From positions 1-64,000 of the forward strand of contig MEDY01000006.1 of NCBI GenBank assembly GCA_001724265.1: 64,000 nt of DNA, in the 5' to 3' direction. Under the pieces are notes generated by a model. The model ran no database searches. It saw only the letters and a list, made by a program, of their open reading frames with translations, and was not told where the DNA came from. A program made the position numbers and the translations under genes. Below are positions 1,373-47,625 of the stretch, one piece after another; position 1 is the first letter of the stretch; each line of letters begins with the position of its first letter. This DNA comes from Rhizaria sp. SCN 62-66. Lineage: Eukaryota.

Positions 1373-4300
1373 ATGTCGCGCTCTAAGGGCCTCTGGGTTT
1401 TCGAGCAAACCGTCGACTTCTTTTCCGAGTACGACCTCGGTCGCAAGCTCGGCGGCGGTGCTTATGGTACGTCCTGTCCTTTCTACATCGCTTTGCTCGC
1501 GTTTCACATCTCTGTGGTACATTCCACTTGCAATATAAACCAGTTTCACTGCTTAACTGCGCTTCGGCAATTTGTTTCGCCCACCTCCGACGCCGCACCA
1601 TCCCCTCCCTCTCCACTCTCACCAACTCTTTTCCCTTTGCCTCGGCTCTGCTCCTGTCTATCTCTCCACGTAATCCTTATCGGCACTCCTAGGTCGCGTC
1701 TACGAGGCGATCCACAAGTTGACGGGCGACGTGCGCGCCGTCAAGACGATTCAGAAGGCCCATTTCAAGGCCGAGCTCGACCTGTTCCGGCACGAAATCT
1801 CAATCATGCAGAAACTGGACCACCCGTCGCTGGTCAAGTTCTACGGCTTCTACGAGTCGCCTAAGCTGCTCTTCATGGTCATGGAGCTGTGCGAGGGCGG
1901 CGAACTGTTCGACTTTATGCGGCGCAAGTTCGCCCCGCGCGGCTGCCTGCACAAGTGCGCGCCGTGCTGCCTCACGCTCTGCGGGCGCATCCGTCCCGAG
2001 ATCTACTCGGAGCAGCAGGTCTCGGTCTGGCTCAAGAAGGTCTGCGAAGGGCTCGCCTACGTGCACAGCCGCCGCATCGTGCACGCCGACATTAAGCCGC
2101 AGAATATCATGCTGAAGCGTCCCTCGTGTGACGCCCGCGGCATCGCCACAGCCACTGCGGAAGACATCCGCATCATCGACTTCGGCCTGGCGTCCGTGGT
2201 CAAGAAGAAGCACCTCGTGCGCGGGCAGGATGGCACGCCTGAGTTCATGGCGCCCGAGGTTGTCAAGGGCAAGTACACCTTCCACTCAGACATGTGGTCC
2301 TTCGGCGTGCTCATCTTCACCATGCTGTGCGGCTTCTCCCCGTTCTGGACGACCTCAGTGTACGACACGTACCACCTCATCGTCGACCACGGCTTCCTGC
2401 CCGATGCGCCCACGCCCGGCTTTGGCAACTCGTTCCCGTCCTACGTCACGCTATCGCCGCTCGCCAAGGACCTCATCATCCGCCTCCTCCGACCCGACCC
2501 CGTGGAGCGGCTGTCGGCCACAGAGGCGCTGCAGCACCCCTGGTTCACGCGGGCCTCTTCGCGCCCGCTCACGGCGCCCACGCTGCGCGGCATCGAGGGC
2601 TACGCCGAGCGCTCGCGCCTTTACGGACTCGTCATGGGCATGCTGCTCGAGACGGTGACCGACGAAGACCTGGAGGAGTGGAAGCAGCAGATGCCACACA
2701 TCGCCGTCACCGACGACAAGGTCACTTACCAGCGCCTTAACACGCTGCTGCACCCCGCCGACGGCCGCAACCCGCTGGCATCTGAGCTCCTGTCCCCAGT
2801 CTCGGCCGCGCCGCCCTCCGCCGGGCCCCAGCGGCTCTCGCAGACGCCCGCGACCGCGTCGCGCTCGCTCTTTCCGCGCGGCAACGGCGCCAATAACAAC
2901 AACAACAATAATAACTCGTCGTACCGCGACCTGGCCTCCGCGTCCGCGTCCGCGGTCCCTGGCGAAGATCCGCTCGCGCGTCCCGTTATGGCCCGCCAGC
3001 TGACCGGGCTCGGCCTGAGCGCCAGCGCCAGCTCCGCGCGCGGCGGCGCCAGCAGCAGCGGCGGCGCGGGCGGGCTGCCGCTGTCGGCGTCGACGGACCG
3101 CGCCGCGCTGTCGCTGCGTGACATGCTCGTGGCCACGCTCGAGCAGAAGCTGCTCGCCAAGGAGGAGCGCGTGTGGTCCGCGTTTGACCGCATGGACCGA
3201 GACCGCAACGGCGTGCTGTCGGCCGAGGAGCTCGCCGCGGGGCTCAAGGTGCCGCTCCGCGTGGCGCAGCAGATTGTGGCCGACGCGGACCAGAACGGCG
3301 ACGGATTCATCGACCTGGACGAGTTCGTCGACCAGTTCCTCCCGGAGGACGGCGCCGTCGCCGGCGGCAGGCGCCGAGGCGCCAAGCCGCCGCCACCCCG
3401 CATGCGTGAACCGTTCCCGAAGCCGCGCCCGCCGCCGGTGGCTTTGGTGGCGGCCGCGGCGGGCGGCGCAGCGGGCGACAAGCCGATCCCGCGCGCGCAC
3501 CCTGCGGCCGAGGTCGGCCGCGCCTCGCACCTGGTGCCGCCTCGTGCCGAGGACTCGCCCGCCTCGTCAGTATCGAGCTACAACGCGGGCGGCGTGCGGA
3601 CGCCCTCGCCGACCGACGCCGTGGCGCACCCCAACATGCACGCCACCGCGGCCGCCGGCGTCGTGACCGTGGGCACCATGGCGAGCATTGGGGAGGGCGA
3701 CATCGACCTCTCCGGACTCGGGCCCGCGACGGACTCAGCTGCCAGCGCTGGCGCCGGCACCGGCACCGGCACCGACAGCGCGGGCGCAGGCACGGTGACC
3801 GTGGCCGTGGTGGGCGTGGACGGCGTGCCGACGCACGGGGCCACGCCCACGGTTACGCTGCCGCCGCACGGCGCGCAGGGGCTGTTGCACCCCGCGGGGA
3901 CGCACGGGCACGCGTACGCACACTCGCCCAGCAGTGCGCTGCAACACCCCACGTCGGTGCTCATCTCAGCCTCCTCGCCCTCGTCCTCGTCCTCCTCCTC
4001 GGCCTCTGCGGAGGCCGCACTGGGCGACTCGAGTAGCAGCAGCAGCGCCGGCACTGTGCCGAACACGCTCAACGCCAACACAGGCGCTGGCGCTGGCGCT
4101 GGGACTGCGGGTGCACAGCCCATCACGCCCGCGAGCATCCAGATCCTCGTCGGCTCGCCCCCCATGGGCGCCTCCCGAACCGCTGCCGGCAACAACAGCA
4201 ACAGCACCGCAGCGACCTCCGCCACCGGCGACTCGCCGTCGATGCGGCCGTGGTCCTTCTTCCCCGCGGTCGCCAACGTCGCCGGCGCACCCCGCGGCCC

Positions 4301-5176
4301 CAGCGCCGACTCGAGCCCGCCGCTGTTCCCCACCGGCGCCGGCTCCGTGCCCTCGACCGCGCCGGGCGCCGCGGCGGCAAACAACAGCAACATCAATACC
4401 GGTCTGCCGTCGCTCGCGTCGCTGTCGCTGTCGACTTCCGCGGCCCCCGCCGCCGCCTCGGCGCCCGTGTCGACCGCGGCGGCACACCCCGCCAACTACG
4501 GCTCCACGGAGATGATCCGCGGCGAGACCTTTACCTCGGGCGCCGTCGCCACGGCGTTCGACCTCCTGCCCTCGCTCATGTCGCCCATTGACGCTGAGCG
4601 CCAGCGCGCCGCCGTGTACGACAGCGGCTCGCTGCGCGGCGTCGTCGGCTCGCTCTCGCAGAAGTTCGCGGCGCAGGCGCGCGCCAGCGGGGCGGGCCCC
4701 GCGCTCGCGCTGCCCAACAGCAATGCCGGCGCCATGGGCGCGGGCGCAGGCGCAGGCGCGGCGCGTGGTTCGGGCTCCATCCTCGGCTCTGGTAGCGCGG
4801 CTGCGAGCGCAGGCCGTCCGCCTCGGCCGCCGGCCCGGGGCTCGGCATTCGCACCAGGCACCGGCGCCGGCGCGAAGCCCGCGGGCGCGTACACGCGCGT
4901 GCCGGACCAGGGTAGCAGCCGCGACGCGACGCCCGAGATCGTGGCCGCGGCCGCACCCGCCAACCCCGGTGCGGCCGCCGCTAGCGCTGGCGCGGGCGGC
5001 GACGCGGTGCACGAGTTCAGCCACAGCCACGGCCTGACCGAAGACGACGAGGACGAGGAGGACGGGCACGCCGACGACGCCGAGGTCCTCGCCGCGCAAC
5101 GCGGGGCTCTGCGGTCCGCGCCGGGCTGGCGGCCCTCTGCCACCGCCGCAGCGGGCAAGCAGACGAGCAGCTACAC

Positions 5177-5207
<31 letters not shown>

Positions 5208-5558
5208 GGTTCTAACTCGATTGTCGGCGCCGCCCCCAGCGCTGGGGCGCGCCGCGACTCGCTCCAGGCGCAGAAGGAGGCCTTTGCGGCGCGCACCCGC
5301 GACGAAGAGGACGCGCAGCGTGTGCGGCTTAACTTCGCGCGCGAGGCCGCTGAGATGCTTAAGGCGTCGGCAGTGCACCAGAACTCGCCCCACGTGCCCG
5401 CGCGCGGCTTGACTTCTGGGACTGGGAATGGGGCCGCGCTCGCGGTCACTGACGGCGGCGGCAATGGCGCGCGGGTGGGTCAGGGTCTCGGCTCGGGGCG
5501 CGGCGCCATGGGCACCACCGCAGGCACGGTGGACCTGATTCCTGATGACGACAACTAA
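1373..5558 (+). CDS. Calcium-dependent protein kinase (CDPK)-like: kinase domain, EF-hand pair and a very long low-complexity C-terminal tail. Exons 1373-1466, 1693-5558
   Basis: Splicing GTACGT...CCTAG rebuilds the G-loop LGGGAYG|RVY. Motifs AVK, MELCEGGELFD, HADIKPQN, DFG, GTPEFMAPE, DMWSFG; EF loops DRDRNGVLSAEE and DQNGDGFIDLDE. Ends TAA. Confidence 0.9.
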
Positions 5559-8816: not shown

Positions 8817-11800
8817 TCACCAGGCCGGCTTCAAATGTCCGACGGCAGGCCTCTCGCCCCCCGCGGCCCTCTTGCTGCCGCCGTGGCCGCCGCTGCTGCT
8901 CGACGCCTTGGTCGTCGTCATGCCACCCTTGCCGCCCTCGCTGCTGTTGCTGTGGCCGTACATGGAGCGCGACAGGGTGCTCTGCACCACGGGCGGCGGA
9001 GGCAAGTGCACCTTGCCAGACTTGTTGTTGGCCGGCACCTCACGGTACGCAGACTGCAGCGCGGCGTTGCGCGCCGGTGAGCTCCCGTTGCCGTTGTTCG
9101 TGGCGTGGCGGCGCACAGGCGCAGCGGCGCCAGAGCCGGAGCCGGAGCCGGAGTTAGCGCTTGACAATGAGGAGGACGCAGAGGCGGAGTTAGCGCCAGT
9201 GTTGGGGAACGGGCCCACATTAAGCCCGTACGCACTCGCATCGTTGGCGTTGCCGCCGTTGTTGCCGCTAGGGTAGTTGTACTGGCTGGAGCTAAACGCG
9301 GGGTGCTGCTGCTGTTGCTGCTGCTGCTGCTGGCTGTTGTTGCTGTAGTCGTCGCTGTTGGTGTACTCGTTGGTGTTGTTGCCCTCAGTGAAGCCGTCGT
9401 TATCGTACTCGTTGCTGCTGGCACGAGAGCCGTTATTGTTGTTGCTATTGTTAGCCACCGGTGAGGTATAGAGATACTCGACCTCGCCGTCGCCGCTGCT
9501 CGTGTTGTTCTTGTGACCCTGCTGCTGCTGATCGCTCTACAGCTGCTGCGGTTGCTGGTGCTGGTAGGTTGGCCCACGCCCGCTGTTGCCGCCGTTGCCG
9601 CTGGCGCCCTGGTTGTTGCCGTTGTTGGGGTAGCGCAGCGAATACGCCTGCGCGGCCAACGGCGCGCCGCCGCCGGCGCTGCTGCTGGCGGTTGTCGTGG
9701 TGGTGCGCAGCGGGGCCGAGAACAGAGCCTGGCCTGGCGCGGGCGCCGAGAGCGCGCCGCCGCTGCCTCTGCTGCCGCCGCGGCTGGCCCCGCCGCGGCC
9801 GCTCGCGCCCGGCACGGCGGGCAGCGCGTAGGAGTCGCTGCTCGTGGCATTCCCGTTGCCGCTGTTGTTCGTGATCGCAGGGTACTGCTGCTGCTGACCG
9901 TTACCGCCGCGCAACTGCTGCTGCTGGTGTTGCGCGGGGCGGGAGCCGGGGCGCTGGCCCGGGCGCGTCTGGCCGCCCGCGCGGGCGCCGCCGGCCGCAG
10001 TGCCAACGCGCTTCTGTTGCGACTGCGACTGCTGGGACGGCTGCTGGCCGGCGCCGGAGTGCGTGTACCCGTTGGCCGCGAGGCTCTCAGGCGGCGCCAT
10101 GACGAGCGCCTGCATGCCGGGCGGCAACTGCGTGGCCAGGCGGGCCGTCTCGCCGCGCTGCCGGTGCGCGAGACAGTTCTGCAGGTTGCTGAAGCGCTGG
10201 ATGAAGCGATCCAGGTCCTTCTGCCGGCGCCGCAGCAGGCGCGCGCGTGCGGCCTCGACTCGCTGCAGCATCGCAGCCACTTCGGCGCGCTGCTGCGCGA
10301 CGACCTTCTGCTTCAGCAGCGCGAGCCGGACTTCGTTGTCCTCGCGGATCGAGCTGCGCTCGCGCGACTCAACAGCGTCGGCCTTGAGCTTGGCGCGGTG
10401 CGCCTCGAGGAAGTCCTTGGCCTTGGCCAGCGAGGCCTCGATCTTGCGCATCTGGAGCAGGTCGCGGGAGAAGCGGGGCCGAGACTCGAGCTTCATGTCC
10501 AGGTCGTCGAGCTCCTTCTGCATGTCGTCCTCGTGTTTCTGCTGCAGCTCGTACGCGGCCACCTCAATGCGGCCCTCGAAGTCGCGGATGCGCTCCGTCC
10601 ACACGGCGTCGAACGCGGCCATCTCGCTCGCGTGCGCGCCCTGGAGCTCGATCTGCTCCGTCACGTGGCGCTGTCGCAGCATCTCCAGCTGGCGCTGCGC
10701 CTCGTGCGTCTTGAGCTCCTGCAGCCGCTTCTTGGCGATCTCGGCCTCCAGGTACAGACTCTTCTTCTCGCAGTCCTTGAGGTATGCCTCGAGCACCGAG
10801 ATGAACTCTTTCACGGCCGCCGCGTCCGGGTCGCTCACGGTCGTCCCCACGCCGCCAGTGCTGTTCGCGCCAGAGCCGGAGCCTCCCGAGCCGGAGGACT
10901 GGGTCTGACCAGGCTGGTATGCGTTCTCGGAGCGGCCCAGGTAAGGGCGGACGCCGGTGAAGGCGCCGGTGCCGGGGCCCTGGAGGAACTGCCGTGGTGC
11001 GACAGCCGACGTGGTGTCGTCTGCGAGGTACATGTGGAGGTTCTGTGAGTATTCCTCCGAGCCCGCCACGCCCCAGGGCTGCAGCGCGCCGTTGTTCTGC
11101 GACTTGTTGTGCTCGTCGTCGTCGTCGTCGTTGTAGTCGCCGTCGGTGGTGCCGTAGTGGCTGTATTCGTCCACCGCGGTGGTGTTATCAGCTCCGTTGT
11201 TGCCGTGAGCGGCCGCAGCGGGGTCGACGACCGCGGTCGAGGAAGAGCTCGCGCCTGCATTCGAGTCAGACTGCTGCTGTTGCTGTTGCTGTGGCTCATG
11301 GGGCGCGTCGCGGGCGCTGGCGCGAGCGCTGTGGTGCCCGCTGTTGTCGCGTCCGCTCGCGCCGTGGTGCTGGTTGCCGTCGTGGACAGAGCGTGCCGAC
11401 TGGGCGGGCGACGCGTGCTGCGACCGCGGGGCGGCGGGCGCCTCGTCGCGCTGGCTAGCGCGGGCGCTGGTGTTGCCGCTACTACCCTGCACATGAGCAT
11501 GTGCAGCGGCCGACACAGCAGGGGCGGCGGCGCTGTTGTTGTCGCTGGCGCTGGCGCGCGCTCTAGGCTGTGCGCTGTGGGGGTCGCCGCTGTGGCTGTT
11601 GTTCATCGTCGCGTTGTCGTCCATGGCGGCAGCGGCAGCGAGCTCTGCCTGAATGCTGCGGGTCAGGTGGTTGTTATCGTCGTTCTGGTCGTCAACGCGG
11701 CGCGCGCCGGTGGGCAGGGAAGGAGCAGTGTACTCCGGCCCCGCGTTACCCGCGCCAGCAGCACTGTGGGCGTTGGCGTTGCCCGCCGCAGCAGGCGCAG

Positions 11801-12089
11801 GGGACGGCTGGTGTGCATGAGATGCAGATGCAGCGGCAGCAGGAGCTACGGCAAGACGGTCGGCCTCAGAGGTCCCCGTGCGCGCGGTTGCGGGCTGCTC
11901 CGAGACGAACGGGTCATCCGCACCGGCGTCGGCGTCGAATGCGAGCGGGCGCGGGAAAGCGACCTGGACCTGGTCCTCCTGGTCCTGCTCCTGCGGTTGG
12001 GGGTCGTGGTGGGGGTGGGCGGCGGCGCCGTCACCTGCGCTCGCGCCGGTGAGCGCGGACGGCCGAGCGGCTTCCGCACTGACAGACAT
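8817..12089 (-). CDS. Coiled-coil protein (~1090 aa) with low-complexity flanks; single CDS containing an in-frame TAG at 9539-9537
   Basis: ORFs 9537..12089 and 8817..9458 are in the same frame and separated only by one TAG (QQPQQL*SDQQQQGHK). Central helical domain EFISVLEAYLKDCE...YLEAEIAKKRLQEL...RFSRDLLQMRKIEASLAKAKDFLEAH resembles, from memory, an uncharacterised family of flagellated protists. Ends ...HLKPAW-TGA. Confidence 0.75.
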
Positions 12090-12736
12090 GCGCTACAAAG
12101 AGAAGAGGGTGCAAGCAAATAAGAGGGGGTGGCAGTTAGAAAGACGTCTTGTGGCGCTCTGGGGGTGATTGATAGGAAGGCAGGCGAAGTGGCGATACAG
12201 TCGCAAGATGGGGCAAAAGCCATGCGTATATAGCCGGCCATTTGGTACCAGCGCGATAGCTAAAGTCATGAATAGATCGACCATGCGCTTGATACCACGA
12301 TATTTAAAGGATATATCCCAGCAACGTTGGATAGACCGAGTTATCTCGCCTGCCAGCACCGCCGCCGGTTACTTTACCTTCTGCCGGCTTGCCTTCGGTC
12401 GGTCAACGTCGGTCAGTCGGTTACCAAACACTGCAGCGGACCACGGTCACCTTGTGGGTTGAGAGCCGTTGGGATCGGGGAGCAGAGGAGGCACATTGCC
12501 GTTTTTGCAAAACCACTGAATACTCCGTGTATGCACCGTGTTGTCTTAACTCACTTGCATATTTCAATTTAACCGTACATTTGGTATTTCAATAACGAAA
12601 GATATTTGCATATAGTGCTTACTTACCGACATTTTTTCATGTATTCATTAGGTCAGGTTTCACAGGTTTCCTCGTCATCCACAACGTTTCGTCGTTCGAG
12701 CTGCTGCACCTTGGTGTCTCAACCAGTGCTTCCCAA

Positions 12737-19539: not shown

Positions 19540-20999
19540 ATGAGTCAGAATCAAGACCCTTTGGCACGTTATACGCGCCTTAGCAAGCTTGGCGAGGGAA
19601 CTTATGGCGTTGTGTACAAGGCCCAAGATCTCGGTACGTCTCGTCCCTAGTGGCGCTCCCGGTCCACCATTTATTACCCTCTTTCTCACAGTGTATACAT
19701 CGGGTTTCGCGTATTAACCTCCATATTTTCAGATACATGCGTTTAAGTTATGGAAGAATCTGCGCGTGTTGCAGACTTTTGCGGCCGTTTTCATCCTCCT
19801 GATGGACTTGCCTCTCAGCTTACCCCAGCTAACCTTGCCCACCTCTCCCACCTCGTCCTCCTTTGTGCCCCTGTAGTGACCGGCGAGTTCGTCGCCATGA
19901 AGAAGATCCGCCTCGAGCACGAGGACGAGGGTGTCCCCAGCACTGCCATTCGTGAGATTTCCCTTCTCAAGGAGCTCCAGCACGCCAACATCGTCAGGTT
20001 CGTCCCTACGCCGTCACCCCAATGACTCTCCTCCGAGGCACTTGCATCACATTTTCACCCTCATTTGCTCACTTCTGACTCTTCCGCGTCTGTATAAACT
20101 TTGTACCGCATAGCCTCCGCGACGTTGTTCACCACGACGCCAAGCTCTACCTTGTCTTCGAGTTCCTTGACCAGGACTTGAAGAAGTACATGGACTTCGT
20201 CGGCAAGGCGCTCCCCCCTCTTCTCGTTAAGGTACGCATCTTAATCACCACTAATCTGATCTCAATCGCAAATATATTTTGCCACCACATAGTATTACAC
20301 GTGTTAACTCTATTATACTTGTTTTTGCTTTGATTCACCTCACAGTCGTACCTGCACCAGATGCTCAAAGGCCTCGCCTTCTGCCACGCCCACCGCGTCC
20401 TGCACCGCGACATCAAGCCGCAGAATCTGCTCATCGACCAGCGCGGCGCCCTCAAGCTCGCCGACTTCGGCCTGGCCCGCGCCTTCGGCGTCCCCGTCCG
20501 CACGTACACCCACGAGGTCGTGACGCTGTGGTACCGCGCCCCCGAGATCCTCCTAGGCGGCAAGCAGTACTCGACGCCCGTCGACGTGTGGTCCGTCGGC
20601 TGCGTCTTCGCCGAGATGGTCACGCGCACGCCGCTCTTCCCGGGCGACTCCGAGATTGACCAGCTCTACAAGACCTTCCAGATCCTCGGCACGCCCAACG
20701 AGTCGCTGTGGCCCGGCGTGTCGCAGCTGCCCGACTACAAGGCCACCTTCCCCAAGTGGGCCCCCAAGGACCTCGCGGCCTCCGTCCCCGGGCTCTGCGC
20801 CGACGGCCTCGACCTGCTGCGCCGCATGCTTGCGTACGAGCCCGCGCAGCGCATTTCGGCGCGCGAAGCGCTGAACCACCCGTATTTCAAGGAGCTCAAC
20901 CAGCACCGCGAGCAGCAGCAGCAGGCGCAGCAGGCGCAGATGCAGCAACAGCAGCAGCAGCAGCAGCAGGCGCAGCAGGTCCAGCAGGCCCAGCAGTAA
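19540..20999 (+). CDS. CDK1: Cyclin-dependent kinase, PSTAIRE type (CDK1/CDK2/CDKA) with polyQ tail. Exons 19540-19633, 19877-19997, 20114-20231, 20346-20999
   Basis: Spliced translation gives [91 protein letters not shown]. Three GT-AG introns preserve frame. Ends TAA. Confidence 0.96.
20903..20996 (+). repeat. CAG-rich polyglutamine-encoding tract at the CDK C terminus
   Basis: Encodes ...[29 protein letters not shown] before TAA. Confidence 0.9.
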
Positions 21000-25299: not shown

Positions 25300-28200
25300 A
25301 TGTCGGCGCCACCTTGCTGCGGGCAGGGGTTATGTCAACCGTTTCACACAGTTCGAGCGTGGTTTGCTGCCTTCCGACGATTGAACTTGATTCGCTCCCG
25401 CCCTCTGCACTCCCTCCTTCTCCTCGCCTGCCTTGCCACACTCGCCGTACTAGTGCCCACCGTTACATCAGCCGTCACATCTCTGACTGATACACCTGGA
25501 TTTGCTATTTATGACGACTGCGGGCTCAGTTACGAGGACGCATCGGCCTTCAACACAGGCGCCGACTGCCATGGCTACTGTCCGTCTTACCCACCCACCG
25601 CGCCAGCGTCCCCCGCAGCGCCCGTCTTTGCCACCGCGTCCACCGCGGCCACGGGCGGCACCGAGCGCCTGTGTTACTGCCCCGCGTCGTCGGCCTCATG
25701 CTCGCCAGGCTCGTCCGCGCTCATCGCCGCGCTGCGGCGCAAGCCCACGGTCACTGTCGCGACTGCAACGTCTGCGGTAAGCGCGGCTGAGGCGGCGGCC
25801 GCGGGGGCGCGGCGGCCGCAGCAGTCGCTGTCACTGCCGCCGTCGCGCTCGCTGGTTGGACTGGTGGATACGCTGCGGCTGGAGGCCGGCTTGTTCACCC
25901 TAGAGGCGCAGTCCCGCGGGTGGCGGGATCCGAGTCTGATGTTGACTCTCCCTGAGAAACAGACGCTGACGCCTAGAGACTCCGAGTCACAGAAACAGCA
26001 ACGGCAACAGTTTCTAAGTCGCAGCGATGCGGTTACAAGTGGGCATTCCACTGTTTCGACAACTGCTGCTGCTTTTGCCGAGACAGCTGCTGCAACGTCC
26101 TCTCTGACTGCTGCTGCGGCGACGGTTGTTCTCGGCATGGCCGACGCACTTGACGCCAGGGCCAGCACTTCACCGCCGTTTCCCTACGACGCTCCATTGC
26201 CGTTTCCCCTATCCGCAACCACGGCGACTGCAGCAGCAGCCGCCGTTGCTGCGACCGCTTCAAGTGCGAGCGCGAATGCTGGAGCGAGTGCACCTGCGTC
26301 GGCGTTGTTCCCGCTGCCGCCGCAGCTCGCAGTCACTGCCGCTGGCGCCGCGCGCGCAATCCGTGCATCTCCGACCGGCGGGGCTGTGCGGCTTAACTTC
26401 CCCGTGCCCACGGTCACTAACCCACATCCTCTCATCACAATCCCGCTTCCGTTCGCGCTCACGCAGCCAACAGCACAGTCAAGTGCGAGTGCGAGCGCTC
26501 ACAGCCCGCTGTCTCCGGCCCACAGTCTCTCTCTGTTCGGGCTCTATGCGTCGTCCCTGCACATCTCTCCCACGGGGCTTGTGCTCCTCGCCCCGGCCGC
26601 GCCGTCCCCGGTCTGTCTCGACTCGTTTCTCTCGTCCTGGCGCACCGACCCGGCGGCCCGCGCCCCGCGCTTCACGGCCACGGCCGCCGCACCCAGCGCC
26701 GCCGTGCGCGGCGACTGCGAGCACAACCCGCCCTACGGCACAAACGCCACCGGCTGCGCCGCGCCGACCGCGGCAGAGCTCGAGGTCGAGGCGGGGACGC
26801 CGGGAACACCTGAGACGGCTGAGGTCGCGGACGGGGCGTATGAACAGTTTTCCGTGCCCGCGCTGCCGCTGTGCGACTTTGTGGCCATTGCGGGCGGCGC
26901 GACCGATGTCGATCTCATGGGGCTTGTCACTGGTACCGCGGCTTATAACGTGACGAGCACGGGTACTGATGTTTCTGTCCCTACTCCTGCTGTTGTGCTG
27001 TCGTGGGACGCGAGCTCGGTGACTGTGAGCTACCAAAACTTGCGCCGTGCAGTTCCCTACCTTTCTGCATCCTGCTTAAGCTCTCCAGGCTCGGATACCT
27101 CCGATGACTGCGAGCTGGCGCAGCGTGTGTGGACTTCGCCGTCAATGCTCGTGTCGTCCTCTGTGTCTGTGACAAGCTCGGGTGCGGTGCTCACGGCATC
27201 CGCAGGAGAGTCAGCCACGATTACCAGCACTGACTCCGACGCTGGCGCTGCTGATGAGGACTCCAGTACGTGCAACGCTGATCCATCGAGTGAGACCGTG
27301 ACTGTCTCGGCACTCATGACTGCGTTTATGAATACTACCGGTTCTGATGATAGCGATGATGCCATAGCAACCAAGTTGTTCATTGCCCGCTCTCTCGCAT
27401 GGTCCCGACGTCGCGCTTTTGACATTGCAACTTTCTTGCCTGTCACAAGCAATAACGCTGCGCAACACCGCAACGTGTACTTGTCGTCACTGAGCGAGGC
27501 ATCATACTCCCGCTTTGTGGCGCCCCGCAACAGCGTCAACGGAAGCACTGTGCTTTCTGACTCTCGATGGCCATTAGACAGTACGATTGCCTCTGGCAGT
27601 CCCGAGACTGACGTTACGACTGCGGACAACTTCAGCTTCTCGAGCTCAAACACGACTGCAAGTGGCAATGACGACGATGATGAGGATGAGAACGTTGACA
27701 ATCGCCGCGTGAAGCGACCTTGGTTTGCCGGTTCCATCCGCTTTCTGATGTCCCCTCTCGCGCCCCGGTCGATCCCGCTGCCTCTCGTCAACGCCACCGC
27801 CACCGCGGCCGCGTCTGCGCCCCTGTCGGCCTCCGTCGCTGCGGCCGCCTGCTCGCCCCCGCACGCGCTCGCACCCGCCACTGCGCGCGCGGCGGCCTCG
27901 GCGGCGGCCGCGGCGGCGGCGGAGTGGCTCGATGCACGCACGCCGGCGACTGCGGGCGGGTGGGCCTGGTGCATGGCGGCCTGGCCGGTGCGATCGTCGC
28001 TCACAATCAGTACCAACACAACAGACTCATCGAGCTCGAGCGCCAGTGATGTGGGTGCTGCGTATAACTCTGCGACGGGAGCTCTGTTGGCGCCTGCACC
28101 CGCGCTTGCAACTACCACAGCTCTGAAGTGCGTCCCTGCGACGACTTCAAGTTCTGAAACACCTTCACTTGGCCTGACTCCACGAGGTCTCACTTTGTTC

Positions 28201-31200
28201 TGCCCGTTCCCGCGGTCGCTGCGCCCGTTCGCACCGTCAGCCCTGCACACCAGCACAGTGCTCGCAGGGTCCCCGTGGGGCGTGGCGGGCTGCTTGAGCG
28301 CGCCGCCGCGGTGGTCGTGGACCGGCGACACGACTTACACGGCTGAGGTATCCGGATCCACTCAGCAGACCGTCACTGCGATATCACCGACGCGCGTTGT
28401 GTCATTTCTGCTGCCTTTGCTGTCCTTTTCATGCGTGTTCGGCCATCAACAAGGTCTGAATGTCCCGTTTCCTCCAGCACTCAGCACTGGCAGCGGCGCG
28501 ACGTTCGACGCCAACCAAACTGTGCCTAGCTACATTACGGCAGCACCCGCTGCGACGCTTGTTACTGGACTGAAGTACATCCCCGCAATGCACGCACTCG
28601 AGTGCCCGCTGCCGTCTGTGCCGAACTTCATGGTTATCAACGGCGGCTTCTCACAATACTCAGTCCCACTCGCAGTCGCAGCGTCACTCCGCGAGCCCGC
28701 TGCCACAGTCACTACAGATAGCGGTGGCGACGACGCAACTGCGGATGATTTCGCCCCGTCGGCCCGCGCGTTTGCGTCCTCGGCACTCGGCTCGCTGGCC
28801 CCAGTCTCCCGGCTGGCCGTGCTGCCGCTGTCGCCGCTGCTGCAGGCCTACGAGTCCGCGACCGTGCCGTCCGACGCGCTGTACTCGGTGGGCCTGTGGG
28901 CCGGCGTGGTGCCGCGGCCGCCGCTGTCGACGGTGCTGCAGGGCGGCGTCGCGGCCGAGGATGAGGCGCCCGCGCTCGTGGCCAACGCGAGCACCTCGAT
29001 GCTTACGATCAATAACCTTGGCGCTCCACTGCGCAAGGCAGTTGACCCGATGACTCCCGCTGCCGTTGCTTCTCCTGGCTCTGCAATGCCGAGGAGTGCT
29101 GGGATGGAACTCACTGCAGTCACCCCGCGTATCGCGCCTGGAAGCACTGTGTATACCGCACTATGCACTGATTATTCTAACTCTGCGGGGTTTCTTGGCG
29201 TGCTGACTTCGCAGTTGTCTCAGATAAATTCGTTGCCTGTCCTACAGGCTCGGTCGCAGTTGCCAACGCAGCCTCCGTTTTCACACGAGCTGCTGTTTGC
29301 GCACGATGACAGTGCGAATGATGGCAGCAGCTTTACATTCGTGACGACAACGACAACAACAGCGACAGCGACAACCACAGTGACGACAACTGTGTTGACG
29401 TCAAATTCCACAGTGACGCTTACAGCGACTGGCCTCGTCGATCTTGCTATCAAGCAGGCTGCCGCGAGCGCGAGTGCGAGCGCGACAGGGGTGATTGTGG
29501 ACTTTGCAGTCGCGGACGCAACGGCGAATGACGCAGTGTCGTCGTTTCTCCGTAGTGTCGGTGCAGGCACCTACACAGCCACGCTCACGACAACAACCAC
29601 GACCACAGCGACGACGACGGATACGGGCGCTAACTCGGTCATGTTCGCAGACCAGGTTCACGAGTATTCTGACAACAGTGACGCTGACACGGTTCCGCTT
29701 ACTTTAGAAAATGCGGCAGCTGCAACAACCACATCAGATGCAACATCGACTGTGATAAATATCGATTCGCACTTAAACTTTTCCAAGCTGTTTCTTCTGT
29801 CAACGAAGACGCTCGCCCCGACTCTGCCACCCGTGACCTACATCAGCACAAGCAATAACGACGGCGGCACCGGCACCGGCGGCCTCTGCGCCCCCGACTG
29901 CGCCTCCATCCTCGGCGGGCTTGCGTCCCGCGACTCGTGCGGCCTCTGCTCTGGCGGCACCACACTGGTCACTCCCGGCAGCGCGCTCGACTGCGCCGGC
30001 GTCTGCTTCGGTCCGTCAAGCACTAATCTCGCGACTTCCTTCCACCCCATCGCGAAGTATCTCCGCGGCACAGCGCTTTCGCAGGAGGACCAGCAGTACC
30101 TCAGCTCCGTCCCACTCTCGCGGCTTGACTTTAAGGAGGGCGACTGCTTTTGCGACGACACGACCAACTCGCGCTGCCTCGGCTCGTGGTTCGCCATGCA
30201 GTCCGGGCCTGACACGCTGCCCGACGTCGTCGCCGACGAAATGCGGCTGCCGAAGCTCGTCATGACCGGCATCCTTGCCTTCATCGCATTGATCGCTCTA
30301 GCGGTCGGCGCCGCGCTGCCGGGCTTCCGCTGCGCGTGCAAGGCCGCGCGCTGTGGCTGGGTATACCGGCAGGCCGACAGGCGCAGGCGCAGGCTCCGGC
30401 GCTGGCTGCAGAAACACGGGTACGATCTCAACGCTGCCGCCACAGACCCCACTGCGCAATTTGATGACGCATCCAAGGATGGAAACAACTCTGTCGGCCC
30501 CCGGCGCGAGAACTTCGATTCCTACGATCCCGTACTGCCCCCCGCCACAACCGTTACTGCCGCGGCGCGCGCGGGCGCCGGCACTGGCCGCGCCGCCGTT
30601 TTGGCCGCGCACGAGGTCGCGCACGGCCGCTGGGTGCACGGGGCCGCTGGCGAGATCAAGCGCGCCCGCACCGGGTGGCGCATGCGGCGCCGCGACCCGG
30701 CGACCTCGCCACTCGCAGCCATTTTCGGCGGCGGGTACGGGCCCGGCGGCTACGTGGGCCGCCAGTACCGCGACGAGCCTGGCCAGCTTGGTCGCGCCGC
30801 TGCGCAGGATCCGGCCGACGCGCGCATTGCGGCACTGTGGGACTGGGTCGAGGAGGTGTTGCGCGCGTTGGCCGATGCGGGCGCGGCGTATGATCCCAAT
30901 AATCCTAACGGCGCGAACAGGACAAATGATGCCAACAACAACGGCGATGGCAACAACGATGCTAACGGTGGCGCCGAGCAAGGCGATGCCCATCATCAAC
31001 CGGTAAATATGGGCCAAGAGCAGCAACAGCAACACGGTACACCTGTTCACGGCGTTATCGTTGCTGTATCTGGTGGCCCTGGCGGTTACGACCGTTCGGA
31101 CGACGATGAGAGCGATGGTGGCGATGGCGGCAGTGCGAGTCAACGACGGCTCAACTTTATGCGCGCTAACCTTGTGTCTCACCACGGGCGCAACCGCGAC

Positions 31201-34200
31201 TCGAGCGTGCGTGACGGCAGCATTCGCCTTGGGCGCAGCGACAACGACAGCGACGGCGACGACGACAACGTCGGTGACAACAGCGGCGCAGGCGGTGGTT
31301 TTGACCCCGCCCGCTCTCAGCACAGTCACAGCGGCGGCCACAGTGCCACTAGCGGACGTCGCAGCGACGACGAAGAGAGTATGCTACCCGGCATGGTTCA
31401 AGAGCACTTTGACTCGCCCACACTTGGCCCCAACACACCATCACGCTCTCGCAACACGCGCTCAATCGGACACGCGCATCCTGGCGCTGCTACTGCAAGC
31501 GCGTTGTCATCACCCTCTGCTGCCGCTGTCGCTGCGGGCGCTGCTGTGGGACTGGCGCAGCTGCGTTTATCACCAGGACAGTCGTTCCGACTGCCGGGGA
31601 CGCCGAAATTTCCGCAAACGAACGCGGTGAATGCTTCAGCCAACGGTCGGTCTACGCTGCTTGGGCTTAGAGGCAAACCGCCGTTGTCACCGCTGCTGGC
31701 ACCGGGCGCACTGCCACGAACCCGCTCACAGCCGCAGCCACAGGGCTTGCGCTCTGCCCCCCAATCGCCACCGCAACAACATCATCAACTGCAGCAGCAG
31801 AGGACGCCTGCCTCGCCGTCGGCGTTGCTTCATCAACATCAAGAGCTTTTTTTGCCGCAGCTGGCGCCGACGCACGGCAGAAACAGCGCCCGAAGGACAT
31901 TGATGTTCTCCCCAACCACGCCGCCGCATCAACCCGTCACCGTGAGCTCGCCAGCCAGCAACGCTGCTTCAACGGAGCAGCAGCAACAACCCTTACCGCC
32001 ACCACCGTTGCCCATGATGCCATCATCGTCAGCGTCGTTTGTGCTGGCAACAAATCCCACAACTAGCGTATCGGCAAGTGCAGCTGCGAGCCCTGGTGCA
32101 AACCAGCAAACTGATCCTCAAGGCCATCAGGACCAAGAAGAGGAAGACGGCGTTCCCATCTTAGGGACCACTGCGAACAGCAACGCCGCGAGAGGCGCTA
32201 CTGTCTTGCAACCCGCATCAAGCACCAATCCGAACGGTGTCAGTGCCCGCGGTGCGAACGCGAACGCCGCCACTGTGACGAGTGGGTTGGACGCGCTGTT
32301 GCAGTCGAACGCCGCGATGAGCGCCTCATTGCTGCGCTCGCTTGCACGCCTCCCTGTGGTGCTGGCGTCCACTCTGCCGCCAGACTCGGCGCGCAGGCTT
32401 GGGCTTGAGCCACCACAAGATCACACATCACCGCAACCGCCGATGCTGTCGCTGCAACACCAGCAGCAGTACCAGTTTCACGTACCGCAGCAGGGGCAAC
32501 AGTCGCAGCACGTGACAGCAAGGCAGCAACACGGCCACAGCTCACGGCACCCGGCCGCTGCTGCGACGGCGCCTGTTGCGAACGCAGCGGCACCAGTTCC
32601 AGATCGAGCGTTAGTGCCTCATTATCGCGCCGATAGCAATAATTTCCAGTCTCTGTCACAGTTGCAGCCACCGCAATTCATTTTGCCATCTCAACAGCAA
32701 CAGCAGCAGCAGCAGCAACAGCAGGCTGCGCCATCACAGGTGGTGTCTCCTGACTTGTTGGGTTCGACCGGTGCGTTGACTGAGTGGCAGTGGCCGTGGC
32801 CGCGGCACGCGATGTCGCACGTCGTGGGCCGCTTCTCGCGTGTCATCTTGCCCAATATTCTGACACCGTTTGCGTTTGCTGCCACATAGAACGATGACGC
32901 CAATGCCCTTGACGGCCACAACATCGCTGCATCGAACGCACAAGGAACTGTCGGCGAGCGTCACGATGTAAGTGCCCACTTAGACGCTCAGCCCGACCCC
33001 CGCACGTGGTCTCAGCACCCCGGCGCGGTGGGCGACCCGGAGCTCCGCCGCCGGTCCCGCCTGCGGCAGCAGCACCCGCGCTCCGCGTTGGGCCCCGCGG
33101 CGACGCCCGTGACCATGGTCGCGTCGGTCGACGTTGCGCCCGTGTGGGCCCCGAGGTGGCTGCTGTGGGGAGGCGCGTGGGCGGAGATGCTCATGCCACC
33201 AGGGACACCGGTCGGGTCGGAGGGGCTTGGGCTTAGAAGCTGCAGCGGCACGAGCTCTGCGTCGTCGCCGTCGCCGTCGCGGACCAACTCGCGGTCACGC
33301 ACGCGCCGCAACCGCCGCCGCCGCCGTCGTGGTGACGATGATGCGAGCCGGAGGGCCGCCGCGAGCAAGCTTCTTAGAGTTGCGAACAACACCAATAGCG
33401 GCGCGACAATTTCTGGCGTCCACCAAGACCCGCTATCTGATGCTGACGCAGTCGACGACACGCACAGTCGCCGCAGGTCTCGGCGGCACCGCGCGCGCCG
33501 TGCCCGTGGTCGCGACGTGAGCGCTGCTGCTGGCGGCGGTGATGTTGCAGGCCGGCGTTACGCAGTCGGAGAGCGTGGACACGAGAGTGACCACGAGCCC
33601 TACGGGCGCCGCATGCGCAACTCTGCTGGCTACGATAACAACGGCGGTGCCGATTTCGATGATGATCATAGAGCCAGCGATAGCGGTACTGTCAGTGGCG
33701 ATGACAGCGATACAAGCGACGGCGATGACGGTGCGGACGGCGAGGCTCGGTTCAACTTGGGCTTCAGCAGCAGTGGTGTCATGGACAGCAACAACGCCAA
33801 CGCGTGGCCCGGCTCTGCTCGCCAAGTCCAGACGCCCGCTGCGAACCTGTTCAACAGGCACGCGCACCGGCGCGGCCACTCTATCAACGCGGCGCAGTCA
33901 GAGTCAGAACCAGATGCGCCTGCCAGTGCCGATGAGGGCAACGCTGTTGACGCACCCAGTGACTCTGACACTTCCGAGCAGCGGCGGCGCGTCGATGACA
34001 CGATATCTCACTTGCCGACGCTGCCGATATTGCCTCTGCACACAATCACAGCGGCGACCAGCAACACCAATGCGGGTGGCGTTGCCTCGATGACGCCCGC
34101 CCGAGGCAGCACTGTGGCTCCAGCTCCCCCGGGCGACAACGCCAATCTCAACAGCAGCAGCAACCACGCGGTTGGTGGCGGTGTTGGTGTTGCGTGGGGA

Positions 34201-35895
34201 ACCCCCCCTGCGCATGGCCACTCTCTTCAGACCGGCGCCAGTTCTGTTCACGGTCACTCTGAGGGCGAGGCCATTGACCCGCGGTCACCGCGTTCGGCGA
34301 TCGAAGTCCTTGATCACAGTTGTGTCCACGGCCACAATCATTCGCATCACGCGCATGGTCATCCATCTGCTCGTGCCCAATCTGTTGTTGATCCTTCGTT
34401 GCCTCCTGCTGCAGCCGCTGCAGCTGAGTTTGCGCTTGCAACGTCCCGCCGCCACCGCCCCGACACGCCCCGCTTCCCCGCTTCCGCCATTGCAGCGCAA
34501 CCCAACACTCTCGCGCCCAGTGACGGCACCGCAACCAATGGCAGCGCGGCACCCGCGCCCACTTATGGCGCATTGCAGGCGCAGCGGCCCCTCGCGGGCA
34601 CGCGCGCTGCCGTGGCTGCAGCCGAACGCGCCGAGGCCGCCGCCGCGCTAGAGCCCGCCGCGTACGCCGTGGTGACCGCGACGGAGGGCGGGGCGGACGC
34701 CATGCCGCGGCGGCTGCTGCTCATCAGGGCCGCGCCGCCGCCGGTGCTGGCGCCTGTTCCGGACGCGCCCGTCCGGTCCTACAGCCCCGCGTTTAACGAC
34801 CGAAGCTACGCCAACGCCGCGTCTGGTGACAGTCCGGCTGCTAACGCAATCAGTCCTCGCGATGGTGATGGTAGCGGCTCCGGTGCTGTCTCCGCACGTT
34901 CTTTTGCGTCTCCACGCTCTCCTGGTGACAACAATGATAACGCACCCAACAGTGGTCGTGGTGCTAATTCAGGGCCGATGTCTGCCCGTGCAGCTGTTCC
35001 CCACACACATGCGACTCACGCGAACCCCCGTGCTAACGTATATCCTCTTGCATCCGCGCCTGCGTACAGCGCCCCGTCGCAACCGCTGATGTCAACGACC
35101 GCCGCTGCCGCAGTTGCAGCCGCTGAGACGGCCCGTTTGCGGCAACAGCAGACAATCGCGACTGCGGCAACCGTGCTTGATTACACAGAGCGCGCGCTGT
35201 CACGTGCCCATGCGATTGAAAACCGCGCGGCGATGCTGCAAAGCCAAGCTGCCTCGTCGTCTCTGTCGCCCATCACAGATTCCGCTGTGCCAACTGGTGA
35301 TGTTGCTATGACATCGGCTGAAGCAGCGGGAGTTGCGTCACCGTCAGCGCCCGCAGCAGATGTCATTCTGAGTCCTTTCACTGCCGCTGCCGCCGCCGGC
35401 GCCGCTGCTGCCCGACTGGCCGCGCTTGTCCGCGAAGACGAGTGGGCGACTGCTGCTGCTGAGGCTGCCGCTGTGGCGGCGGAGACGGAGGCTGCGGAGG
35501 CCGAGGCCGAGGATGAGGCGACCGCGCTTGCTGCTGCGGCGGCGGAGGCGCAGGAGCTGGTGCGGGCACGCGCATATGAACCGTTCCCGCAGCCGTGGGA
35601 GTACGGCGACTACGGCGACGACGAAGAAGACGGCACCAACGCGAATGCGAATGATAATGGCGTCGCTGGTGATTTTGGAGGGAACGGGACCGGTGTTGGC
35701 CGAGCGAGGCGCAGTGGTGGGCATGCTGGGCGCAATGCTAACGACAGTAGTCAGGCTGCCGATATCAGTGCTGCTGCTCCGTCTAGGGCCTTGCCGGTGA
35801 CAGCGTCTGCTAGCCAAGGATTGCTGGGGACTGTACAGTCAACCGCGATCGTTGGCCAAGAAGAAGAGGAGGACGGCCGCAGTGGTAGGATTTAA
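25300..35895 (+). CDS. Very large (~3500 aa) predicted type I membrane protein: signal/hydrophobic N terminus, Ser/Thr/Ala-rich ectodomain, Cys-rich juxtamembrane module, one TM helix and a long disordered tail; in-frame TAG at 32887-32889
   Basis: ORFs 25207..32889 and 33028..35895 share a frame and the 46 intervening codons are open. Hydrophobic stretch LHSLLLLACLATLAVLVPTVTSA; Cys motif DCASILGG...DSCGLCSGG...DCAGVCFG; TM LVMTGILAFIALIALAVGAALP followed by basic residues. First ATG 25300; ends TAA. Confidence 0.7.
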
Positions 35896-44397: not shown

Positions 44398-47300
44398 ATG
44401 TCCCATCCACTGCACAAGCCGCGGCCTGGGTACCTGCCTCACAAGAAGCACGGTAACCGCCCACCGCCGCCAACCGTGCTTGCCGCCGCCGGCGCCGCAC
44501 CCCTGAAGCCCCAGTACGGCGTTGATCCACGTCTGGAGCTCTTCGTGCCCCCGCAGCAGCGTCGCGCGCGGTCGCCCGCAGCGATAAAAGCATGGCGCTC
44601 TCTGCTATCCGCGGTTCCGGGGCTTGCGCACAGCGCGTTCGGGGAGCTCCCCGCGCGGATGCAGCCTGCTGCGGACGAGTTCACTGTGCTGGCAGCCGTT
44701 TTCGCAGTGTTCGACAGCTCTTACTTCGCTGATAACGAGTTTACTCCTTCTGTAACGGCTCCGAAGCAGAGTGATGTGAACGAGAGCAATCACGATGTTC
44801 CTCAGTCGTTCTCTCTGGTGACTATGAGCACGGGCACACGGTGTCTTGGCGCGAGCTTGCAGTCCCGCGCCGGGCTCGTTGTCGAGGACGGGCACGCGGA
44901 AGTCAAGTCGCGTCGCACGCTGTGCCGTCTGTTGATGCACGACCTGGCAGCGCTCTGTCTCCGCGTGCGCGCTACTATCAACGCGTTCAACAATAACAGC
45001 AACGAAAGCAGTACCGATGACGCTAGTGCTCGCGGCACAAGTCCCACCAAGGTTGTTATCGTGCGGTCAACGTTCTTTGAGTGGGCATTATACCCCATTC
45101 TGACAACTTCAGCCGCCGACACACCTGTCATTGATGCTGCTGCGCCCACAGACACTACTGCGACAGAGGCGGATATCCCAGCTGTGACGGCGGGTGTGAC
45201 CGCGCCCACGGTCACTCTGCGTCCTGCCCCGAGGCCTCGGCTGCGCCGCGGCGTGAGCTTCGCGCTGTACGTCTCACAGCCGCCCTGCGGCTCCGCTTCG
45301 TACGACCTGCCGCGGCCTAACTTTGACCCCGACTCCCAAGCATCGAACAGCAGCAACATCAACGCGAGCACAGGGGCTAACACAGACAACAGTAATGACA
45401 ACGCACAATCATCTGATGCAAGTGCGAGCGCGATCATAGACACCACCACCACCACCACCAGTGCTGCGTCGAGCTCACCGTCATCTGCTTGCCCACTGCC
45501 ACAGTTACTCGCTGACTCATCGGCGACGGACCCAGCCCGCCTGCAGCCGAAGCCAGGCCGCTCGGACCTGCCCGCCGCGCTGCGCACGCGCTGCCAGAGC
45601 TGCAGCGACAAGCTCGCCCGCCACTGCGCGCTCGGGCTCCAGGGCGCCTGGCTCGCGGCCGCTGCGGCGAGCCCGCTCACTGACCGCGAGCGCGAGCAAG
45701 AGCAAGAGCAAGCGATCGCATTGACTAGTGGCTGCGAGAAGGGACGTTTGTGGGATGTCAGGCGTGATTTGGTGCTGCCGTGGACGGCTGTTGTTGTGTC
45801 AGCTGGGGTTGACCCGGCGATCACGCTGCCCATAGTCACGGAGGTGGCGTCGACTGAGTCTGGTAACGCTGCCCCGGATTCTCAGAGCCAATCTGACACT
45901 GCAAGCACTGCTGCTTTAAACACGACTCTCACTGGTTATAAGCAGAGTGGGACATGGGATGACGCATCTGTGACTCAATACGGCACTATCAATGGGCTCA
46001 AGCTTGCTTTTTACGACCGTATCCGTGGTCACTTTGCGCCCGAGTCACTTACGAACAAGTCTCAGTCTCACGCAGAGGCAGACGAGCAGTCTCAGTCTGG
46101 CCTGCCTGCACCGCCGCTGCCACCACTGCTCGCAATCGCGCCTTCGGTTTGTTTCCCCAATTCGCGCTGGGCTCTGCTCAGGCAGGCGGCCGCGGAGGCG
46201 CGGGCAAGGCAGGTCGAGGCGCAGAAGGAGCAGCAGCAGCAGCAGCAGCAGTTTGAGCAAGGGCAGCTTCAACAACAAGGTCACCAACAGGAGAAGAACG
46301 ATCAAGACAATGTCTCTGACTCGCAATCCGCAGCACCAGCGAAGGCTAAGGACGCGTCTAGGAGTCATCACCAATCTAAGGGGGGTCCATCTAAGGGCCC
46401 CGGTGGTGCTCCGATGAGCAACCGCAGCGCGAAGCTCTTGTCTTTAGTGCCGCGCGCGCCGCGGTGCCCACCCATGGCGCTGGCGTGGTGCGCTGTGCCC
46501 ATCTTCGCGATGCCCTCAGGCCAGGGCTCAAACAACAGCAACAGCAACATCAATACTAGCTCTGACTCGAGTCCAGGCTCCAGCTCGGTTGATATCTCGG
46601 TCACGATTGCAGACAAGCTCGCTGTCACGGCTGTGACGGTGAGTTCTCTGAACTCCAGCCAGAGCACTGCTGCTGTCGGTTCAGTGACCGTGCTGCCGCG
46701 GCTGACCGTGAGCTGCGGCAACGACTGGTTCGAGACCGTGGTCGAGCGCTACGGGCTCCGCCAGGGCGCGCAGAAGCGGCCGGTCGAGGACGACACGAGC
46801 GAGGAAAAACGGGCGAACGCGCATCTTAATGCTGTTGATGCGAATGCTGCGACAGATACCACTTCTGCGGCGACAGATGATGACGTGATCACTCAGAAGT
46901 AGCCGCCTCAGCCAGGTGACGCTGAGAGCAGCAGCAACAAGGCTGAAGTCAGTGCTGATGTCGTCCTCCCAGCTTTTGCTGCTGCCACTCCAAATGTCGC
47001 TGCTGCAACTGAGTCTGCAACCGCTCCCGCTGCTGCTGATGTTGAGACTGCGTTCGTGTCGTCGTCATACCCGGTGCCTCGTGACGCCTTCAGTCCGCGT
47101 GCCTGCGTCCCCGCCCTGTCGTCCCTGTCGCTGATGTGCGCGTTTCGCGACATCACGCTGCTGTGGCCCACTGCCGCGAGCACCGTACCTATGCCTGCTA
47201 GTGGTGTGTCGACGGCAACGTGCGGGGCTGATGCGTACGCAGCGCGGTTGCGCACTGCCGCGGCGTTGCCTGCCGCTACTGCGAAGGCGTACCTGTACAG

Positions 47301-47625
47301 CGTCGCCAACGAGGCGCAGTCGCGGCTCAAGTTTACACACCCGACGTATGGCGAGAGGAAGGATGATGCCCTGAATATCAACGGCCTTGATGCAAGTACT
47401 ACGCATTCCAGCAGTGTTACTACGAGCGAGACTGCGACTGGGGGAAGTCAGGCTGTGACGACAGCCCAAGGTTTCGGTCTCCGCGGCTGGCCACCCAAGG
47501 AGCAAAAGTACACGCAGTTTGTCCTGCCCGAGCCGTACAAGATGCGGGACACACTGCAGCGGCCGTGGGCCCGTCTGGGTCTTAGCTCCTGGCTCTGGGA
47601 CGACGATGAGGCGAAACGGATCTGA
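44398..47625 (+). CDS. tRNA-specific adenosine deaminase ADAT1/Tad1-like (ADAR-type deaminase domain, no dsRBD seen), ~1075 aa, with an in-frame TAG at 46900-46902
   Basis: Motifs TGTRCL, DGHAEV, LYVSQPPCGSAS, KPGR, SCSDKLAR...LGLQGA, GLRQG. The same frame continues past the TAG into SSLSLMCAF and GWPPKEQKYTQF, which resemble the family's terminal elements. Ends TGA. Confidence 0.85.

Follow-up and report, generated by a model that had tools for sequence, protein, structure and literature searches.

Does the triplet TAG end genes in this genome, or is it read as an ordinary codon? The question arises from a coiled-coil gene on the minus strand of a 64,000-nucleotide (nt) stretch of DNA, referred to below as the window (contig MEDY01000006.1, positions 1 to 64,000, assembly GCA_001724265.1, Rhizaria sp. 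SCN 62-66). The open reading frame (ORF) of this gene contains an in-frame TAG, hereafter the focal TAG, at which the public gene call of the locus (P0005, 850 amino acids) ends. A first-pass annotation had placed this TAG inside a glutamine (Gln)-rich tract, had followed the frame beyond it to ...HLKPAW-TGA and had proposed that UAG means Gln. The codons and the position (9537-9539, minus strand) were as claimed: the site reads TAC CAG CAC CAG CAA CCG CAG CAG CTG TAG AGC GAT CAG CAG CAG CAG GGT, and the frame runs on for 239 open codons, ending at the TGA at 8817-8819. The best explanation for these and the following observations is that TAG is read as a sense codon while TAA and TGA remain stops, and we consider this probable.

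The sequence after the focal TAG is coding

By every measure applied, the tail after the focal TAG is coding. Codon usage was evaluated with a log-odds score whose training set was nine Pfam-backed ORFs from the window, the TAG-bearing genes being excluded; on this scale, true coding windows have a mean of 0.58 and a 5th percentile of 0.12. Upstream of the focal TAG the score was 0.47, as against 0.57 in the tail, and it fell to −0.33 past the TGA at 8817, where three in-frame stops occurred within 139 codons. GC contents at the first, second and third codon positions (GC1/2/3) were 0.72/0.54/0.86 upstream of the TAG, compared with 0.53/0.55/0.85 downstream of it. In each of its five other frames the tail scored between −0.28 and −1.23, with 2-11 stops, and the 717-nt tail remained open in only 0.0024 of 5000 mononucleotide shuffles. 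As the first Met of the tail is residue 192 of 239, the tail is not a separate ATG-started ORF.

The site was also exceptional when the whole window was scanned for stop triplets. Across all six frames, 431 triplets (244 TGA, 106 TAG and 81 TAA) were flanked by at least 30 open codons on each side. The focal TAG was the only one with both flanks scoring above 0.35 (0.51 and 0.55), and coding-like sequence on both sides was found for none of the 81 TAA and none of the 244 TGA triplets. Opposite strongly biased genes, antisense frames with high GC at third positions (GC3) stay open and carry TAGs (3578-5171, 13696, 18203, 23557 and 41189). Such frames can pass for coding sequence with an in-frame TAG if the sense strand is ignored, and are a trap for scans of this kind.

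In-frame TAGs and gene ends across the window

All three long ORFs of the window that close at a TAG stay open in frame beyond it, for 239, 1001 and 240 more codons, and the codon-position GC profile was unchanged past each of the three TAGs (Table 1). The 1001 codons after the TAG at 32887 kept the GC1/2/3 profile and ended at a TAA. The 240 codons after the TAG at 46900 ended at a TGA, with a shuffle probability of remaining open of 0.0006. Eleven long ORFs closing at TAA or TGA had run-ons of only 1-41 codons with a non-coding composition, and GC3 in the 5 of the 11 that were long enough to measure was 0.22-0.54. When smaller and spliced genes were included, the 18 apparent gene ends of the window comprised 10 TAA, 8 TGA and no TAG; these ends, all from one 64-kb window, were assigned where an ORF closed and the codon score was lost, rather than from alignments to orthologues.

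Table 1. Positions of the focal gene, its parts and the two other in-frame TAGs in the window
Feature	Coordinates	Strand	Basis
In-frame TAG, codon 851 from ATG 12089	9537-9539	-	sequence read, translation
Proposed full coding sequence, ATG 12087-12089 to TGA 8817-8819, 1090 residues with TAG translated	8817..12089	-	open frame, codon score
Conserved coiled-coil domain, ~290 amino acids, wholly upstream of TAG	10005..10877	-	phmmer
C-terminal tail after TAG, 239 codons, S/N/G/A/Q-rich, low-complexity	8820..9536	-	GC3, codon score
TGA, apparent true terminator	8817..8819	-	codon-score drop downstream
Second in-frame TAG, codon 2530 of 3531-codon ORF (25300-35895)	32887..32889	+	frame continuation
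Third in-frame TAG, codon 835 of ADAT1-like deaminase gene (44398-47625)	46900..46902	+	frame continuation

UAG as a probable sense codon

If UAG does not terminate, the coiled-coil gene would be translated from the ATG at 12089 through the TAG at 9537 to the TGA at 8817. Its product would be a 1090-residue protein in which the conserved coiled-coil domain lies between long low-complexity regions. UAG would be read by a transfer RNA (tRNA) with the anticodon CUA, most simply a derivative of tRNA-Gln(CUG), and eRF1 would have lost its efficiency on UAG. The codon would be used very sparingly, in this window only at non-conserved low-complexity regions. Gene callers that assume the standard code would then truncate proteins here, reporting 850 instead of 1090 amino acids for the focal gene, and would split the 3531-codon ORF into genes of 2529 and 926 amino acids.

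Several observations weigh against a sense TAG. There are only three TAG codons, all in low-complexity regions where truncation might be tolerated, and the conserved coiled-coil domain is already complete before the focal TAG, so that a product truncated there would keep the conserved part. With 3 in the 5696 codons of the three genes, UAG is far rarer than in the described UAG-reassigned lineages. None of the three sites in the window is at a conserved, Pfam-matched or orthologue-alignable position; the WDR35 exons aligned to an orthologue showed 0 stops, and no TAG was seen in the Ola1 exons, which were read by eye. The nine Pfam-backed ORFs (5849 codons) also lack TAG, because they were picked as closed under the standard code. 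The 64-kb window contained no tRNA gene (0 by ARAGORN and 0 by Rfam), and eRF1 was not in the window. No independent confirmation of the base call at 9537-9539 was seen. For Gln in particular, the contexts of the other two TAGs do not favour this residue; only the focal site is Q-rich.

Which amino acid UAG would specify

The first-pass annotation had offered the focal site as the best contextual evidence that UAG means Gln. That the TAG is non-terminating and that the gene runs to the TGA at 8817 was strongly supported. The Gln assignment itself was not demonstrated, since it rests on one Q-rich site; by codon usage this site is the cleanest of the three, but that does not identify the amino acid. 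Residue composition had also been described as the same on both sides of the TAG. Both sides are indeed low-complexity, but their residue makeup is only roughly alike: the 160 preceding residues comprise G 0.20, A 0.14, Q 0.13 and S 0.11, and the 239 following residues S 0.18, N 0.13, G 0.13, A 0.10 and Q 0.07.

Given that TAG is sense, Gln is plausible but unproven, with a chance that we put at even or slightly better. It is favoured because it is the commonest outcome of UAG or UAR reassignment in eukaryotes, according to PMC11687900, because a single C-to-T transition turns CAG, the most used Gln codon of these genes, into TAG, and because the focal context is Q-rich. The three TAG genes together contain 213 CAG, 75 CAA and 3 TAG codons, and the focal site lies within a CAG/CAA run, Q accounting for 9 of the 20 flanking residues.

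TAG may instead be a sense codon for some other residue (Leu, Ser, Glu, Trp or another). This alternative is nested in the best explanation, from which only the residue differs, and we regard it as possible but on the unlikely side. The residue contexts of the three TAGs are QQPQQL*SDQQQQ (focal), FAFAAT*NDDAN and VITQK*PPQPG, two of which are not Q-rich, and the codon directly before the focal TAG is CTG (Leu). A local-composition likelihood over the three sites gave −3.06 for D, −3.36 for Q and −3.46 for T, and D, Q, T, P and A were all within 0.5 log10 units. There is precedent as well, as PMC11687900 records UAG-only reassignments to Gln, Leu and Ser. UAG alone has become Leu in the sainouroid rhizarian exLh, which is uncultured, and in three TARA phyllopharyngean metagenome-assembled genomes (MAGs) of ciliates, and Ser in Scotinosphaera (PMC5304391, PMC11687900). 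Unlike the Gln originally proposed, these cases end in Leu or Ser, and the present data cannot separate the options.

Possible stop-codon readthrough

Alternatively, TAG could still be a stop, with gene-specific programmed or leaky readthrough producing short and long isoforms from three genes. The window resembles such systems in that a few genes have a coding-looking extension past the stop, with the core domain of the focal protein complete before it; in-frame TAG is extremely rare, and the TAGs occur only in dispensable-looking tails. Near-cognate reading of UAG by tRNA-Gln is a known route of readthrough. In addition, the downstream context TAG-A.C-GAT is common to two of the three sites (TAG AGC GAT at 9531-9539, minus strand; TAG AAC GAT at 32887-32895, plus strand), the third site reading TAG CCG CCT; with three sites, this may be chance. 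Unlike programmed readthrough, however, all three cases use TAG, and TAG is missing from all 18 apparent gene ends. If TAG held a 20% share of terminators, a value that was assumed and not measured, the probability of this absence would be 0.8^18, or about 0.02. Moreover, the codon bias of the focal tail matches that upstream, implying full-strength selection on its translation. We therefore consider readthrough improbable as the explanation for the three genes.

Possible mutation or assembly error

An ordinary stop that arose from CAG by a recent nonsense mutation, as a strain allele or through a sequencing or assembly error would leave the tail as an undecayed relic. Within a CAG repeat such as the one at this site, a C-to-T change or assembly trouble is plausible, and the public call P0005 stops at the TAG. 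Run evidence at the site consisted of assembled Logan contigs from four runs (X3, X4, X5 and X7). No listed contig piece spans 9537, and joints or loose ends fall at 9452, 9547 and 9580 in the CAG-rich stretch. For 9537-9539, the four runs listed no call of another letter, coverage there not being proven. A contig from a complementary DNA (cDNA) library covers 8827-9296 inside the tail; as the library also has DNA-like contigs, this leaves both transcription across the TAG and termination at the TAG unsupported.

Over other parts of the window, two contigs from an independent assembly were identical to it at 2276 of 2276 bases (L001) and 3593 of 3594 bases (L002). An error or lesion would, moreover, have to recur: three independent genes of the ~19 in 64 kb would need like lesions, each giving TAG and never TAA or TGA. 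We judge this explanation to be more doubtful still than readthrough.

Introns in the window

Real introns in this genome have a recognizable form. Three GT..AG introns (243, 116 and 114 nt) were defined at 19.6-20.3 kb by a spliced cDNA contig, and the WDR35/IFT121, Mpp10 and Ola1/YchF genes are split by introns. We examined eight introns, three from spliced cDNA contigs and five read off the WDR35 gene. Their donors (19633-20343 and 52428-56000, plus strand) were GTACG in six cases, GTTCG in one and GTACT in one, and the donor consensus, G|GTACG(T/C), is unusually tight. The seven intron intervals that were measured were T-rich, with GC contents of 0.32-0.51. GC3 was 0.83-0.90 in the more biased genes and 0.55-0.68 in three others.

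An intron spanning the focal TAG is unlikely on this evidence, and spliceosomal removal of the TAG from the messenger RNA is the weakest of the alternatives, one to which we give very little credence: the organism does have GT..AG introns, and 67 GT..AG spans across the focal TAG would preserve the frame, a number expected by chance because CAG is frequent, but none of them has the GTACG or GTTCG donor of seven of the eight real introns, no GT[AT]CG donor occurs within 800 nt upstream, no 100-nt window within 400 nt of the TAG falls below a GC content of 0.51, and exon-type composition and codon usage reach the TAG from both sides. The micro-introns from GTAG to the following CAGs, which the first-pass annotation had already discarded, are 13, 16, 19 and 22 nt long; all are 1 mod 3 and hence break the frame. 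The WDR35 gene offers a contrast, in that its in-frame TGA at 53476 belongs to an intron that is clearly AT-rich.

A further in-frame TAG lies two codons 5' of the focal ATG, closing a pyrimidine run (TTC TCT TTG TAG CGC ATG; 12090-12110, minus strand). The region upstream of it is non-coding, with a GC3 of 0.58 over 60 codons and a codon score of −0.11 over 40 codons, and this TAG resembles a 3' splice site of the 5' untranslated region more than a coding triplet.

Comparison with known genetic codes

It is rare for a nuclear code to give UAG and UAA unlike meanings, fewer than 10 lineages being listed (PMC5304391, PMC11687900). Reassignment of UAG alone, with UAA and UGA kept as stops, is documented in several eukaryotes, with a tRNA(CUA) decoding the codon or predicted to do so (PMC5304391, PMC11687900). 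The signature by which it is called is a UAG that occurs in frame and is never terminal, together with terminal UAA and UGA (PMC5304391). A UAG-only change from stop to sense in this window would join a known, rare kind of code change.

UAG alone means Gln in the fornicate Iotanema spirale and in the ciliates Hartmannula sinica, Trochilia petrani and Protocruzia tuzeti, the pattern of NCBI table 15 (PMC5304391, PMC11687900). As in these codes, UAG in our window occurs in frame (3 TAG) and is never a terminator, while UAA and UGA are stops (10 TAA and 8 TGA apparent ends, no TAG). The codon is common in described UAG-reassigned lineages: Iotanema has 204 UAG in 126 genes and a reassigned rhizarian has 384 in 71 genes (PMC5304391), and internal UAG is carried by 78-91% of genes in phyllopharyngeans and by 78-84% in two of the ciliates named above (PMC11687900). 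There, the residue could also be taken from conserved alignment positions. Here, in contrast, we found 3 TAG in roughly 15,000 codons of the window, all in low-complexity sequence. The genome here is GC-rich and multi-gene, with introns of 114-243 nt, and a 64-kb contig of this kind appears unlike a ciliate macronucleus.

The window likewise shares a sense UAG and UAA and UGA stops with exLh, the TARA MAGs and Scotinosphaera, codes that came to light through transcriptomes or MAGs of uncultured protists (PMC5304391, PMC11687900). No relationship to any of them is shown; the WDR35 protein is only 35-38% identical to its listed full-length matches.

In the code of NCBI table 6, both UAA and UAG (UAR) are read as Gln, as reported for many ciliates, hexamitids, some ulvophytes, oxymonads and Amoeboaphelidium (PMC11687900, PMC5304391). 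UAG is a sense codon there too, usually for Gln. Unlike in table 6 codes, TAA is the commonest apparent terminator in our window (10 of 18 ends) and never occurs in frame in coding-like sequence, so that the defining feature of that table, a sense UAA, is absent here.

The source may be an undescribed, deeply diverged or fast-evolving wastewater flagellate in which UAG alone has been reassigned, possibly at an early stage, UAG being gone from gene ends and back as a sense codon only about three times in roughly 15,000 codons, each time in a disordered low-complexity tail. We advance this picture tentatively. If it were true, the early stage would capture, in nature, the phase of codon capture or of an ambiguous intermediate that the described lineages, in which most genes carry UAG, have already left behind; were the low usage of UAG to hold genome-wide, an early-stage example would be added. 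As the protist here is GC-rich, intron-bearing and not a ciliate, and recurs in metagenomes of wastewater and bioreactors, its code would represent one more independent origin. Codes that split UAG from UAA are informative on the co-evolution of release-factor specificity and suppressor tRNAs. Among UAG-reassigned eukaryotes in the literature searched, none was described from activated sludge or wastewater.

The conserved coiled-coil domain

Judging from its phmmer matches, the coiled-coil domain (residues 470-760) belongs to a widespread unnamed eukaryotic family. Among 1.84 billion representatives searched, 861 proteins matched at E<=1e-3 and 287 of them at E<=1e-10; self matches aside, the best were 37-38% identical, and most alignments among the 150 matches listed covered ~230 of the 291 query residues. 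Family members are mostly 240-450 amino acids long. Pfam recognized no family in any of the 11 members scanned, and the PDB contained no match to the domain. Neighbours in the Atlas are clusters of 'hypothetical protein' from flagellated protists, and the few members with a known phylum belong to Perkinsozoa, Parabasalia and Oomycota.

The tails of the family members are lineage-specific and were not alignable, and in an exhaustive protein search no member aligned at the focal TAG. A protein homologue search with focal residues 470-1155 returned the self match only. When metagenome contigs were searched with the focal protein, 617 pattern stretches matched, with no confirmed relative.

Other genes of the window and the source organism

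The gene with the third TAG encodes an ADAT1-like tRNA adenosine deaminase (Pfam A_deamin, E = 3.6e-23), whose conserved zinc-site motifs HAE, PCG and SCSDK are spread across 1075 residues by large low-complexity insertions. The protein gave only self matches in protein collections. The public 617-amino-acid call of this gene (P0004) leaves the frame of the window at residue 611, where a poly-Q run starts. Pfam searches with the post-TAG tail and with longer C-terminal pieces gave no match, and a PDB search returned nothing relevant. We also considered a likeness of the end of the tail, GLRGWPPKEQKYTQF, to the conserved ADAR/ADAT1 C-terminus, but Pfam, the PDB and the structure model gave it no support; that model, a single-sequence AlphaFold prediction, was uninformative (mean predicted local distance difference test score, 36.1). 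The 3531-codon ORF (25300-35895, plus strand), in which Pfam matched no family, encodes a hydrophobic segment at the N terminus, another hydrophobic stretch in mid-protein with an Arg-rich run after it, and long A/S/T-rich tracts.

The source appears in several metagenomes: half or more of the sampled words of the stretch were present in five runs from four studies of bioreactors, wastewater and activated sludge. GC content varies from 0.42 to 0.71 per 2 kb, and introns are few and short. A WDR35/IFT121 gene with at least five introns (51136-56301, plus strand) is present, and the organism therefore builds cilia. The first exon of this gene was 35-38% identical to the listed full-length matches, with one match at 41% covering 73% of the query, and the best matches were spread alike over animals, a cryptophyte, a green alga and an MMETSP transcript. 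This low identity suggests a very divergent lineage, and the flagellate has no close relative among those sequenced. A scan of metagenomes with WDR35 recovered only two short contigs of the same organism, L001 and L002, both inside the span of the window, and two further contigs at 36% identity.

Two protein-kinase genes are also present on the plus strand (1806-5558 and 19747-20999). The first is CDPK-like, combining a kinase domain and EF hands with a 740-residue tail, and probably has an upstream exon, because its kinase domain begins at profile position 52. Its best matches were apicomplexan CDPKs, but these dominate the PDB.

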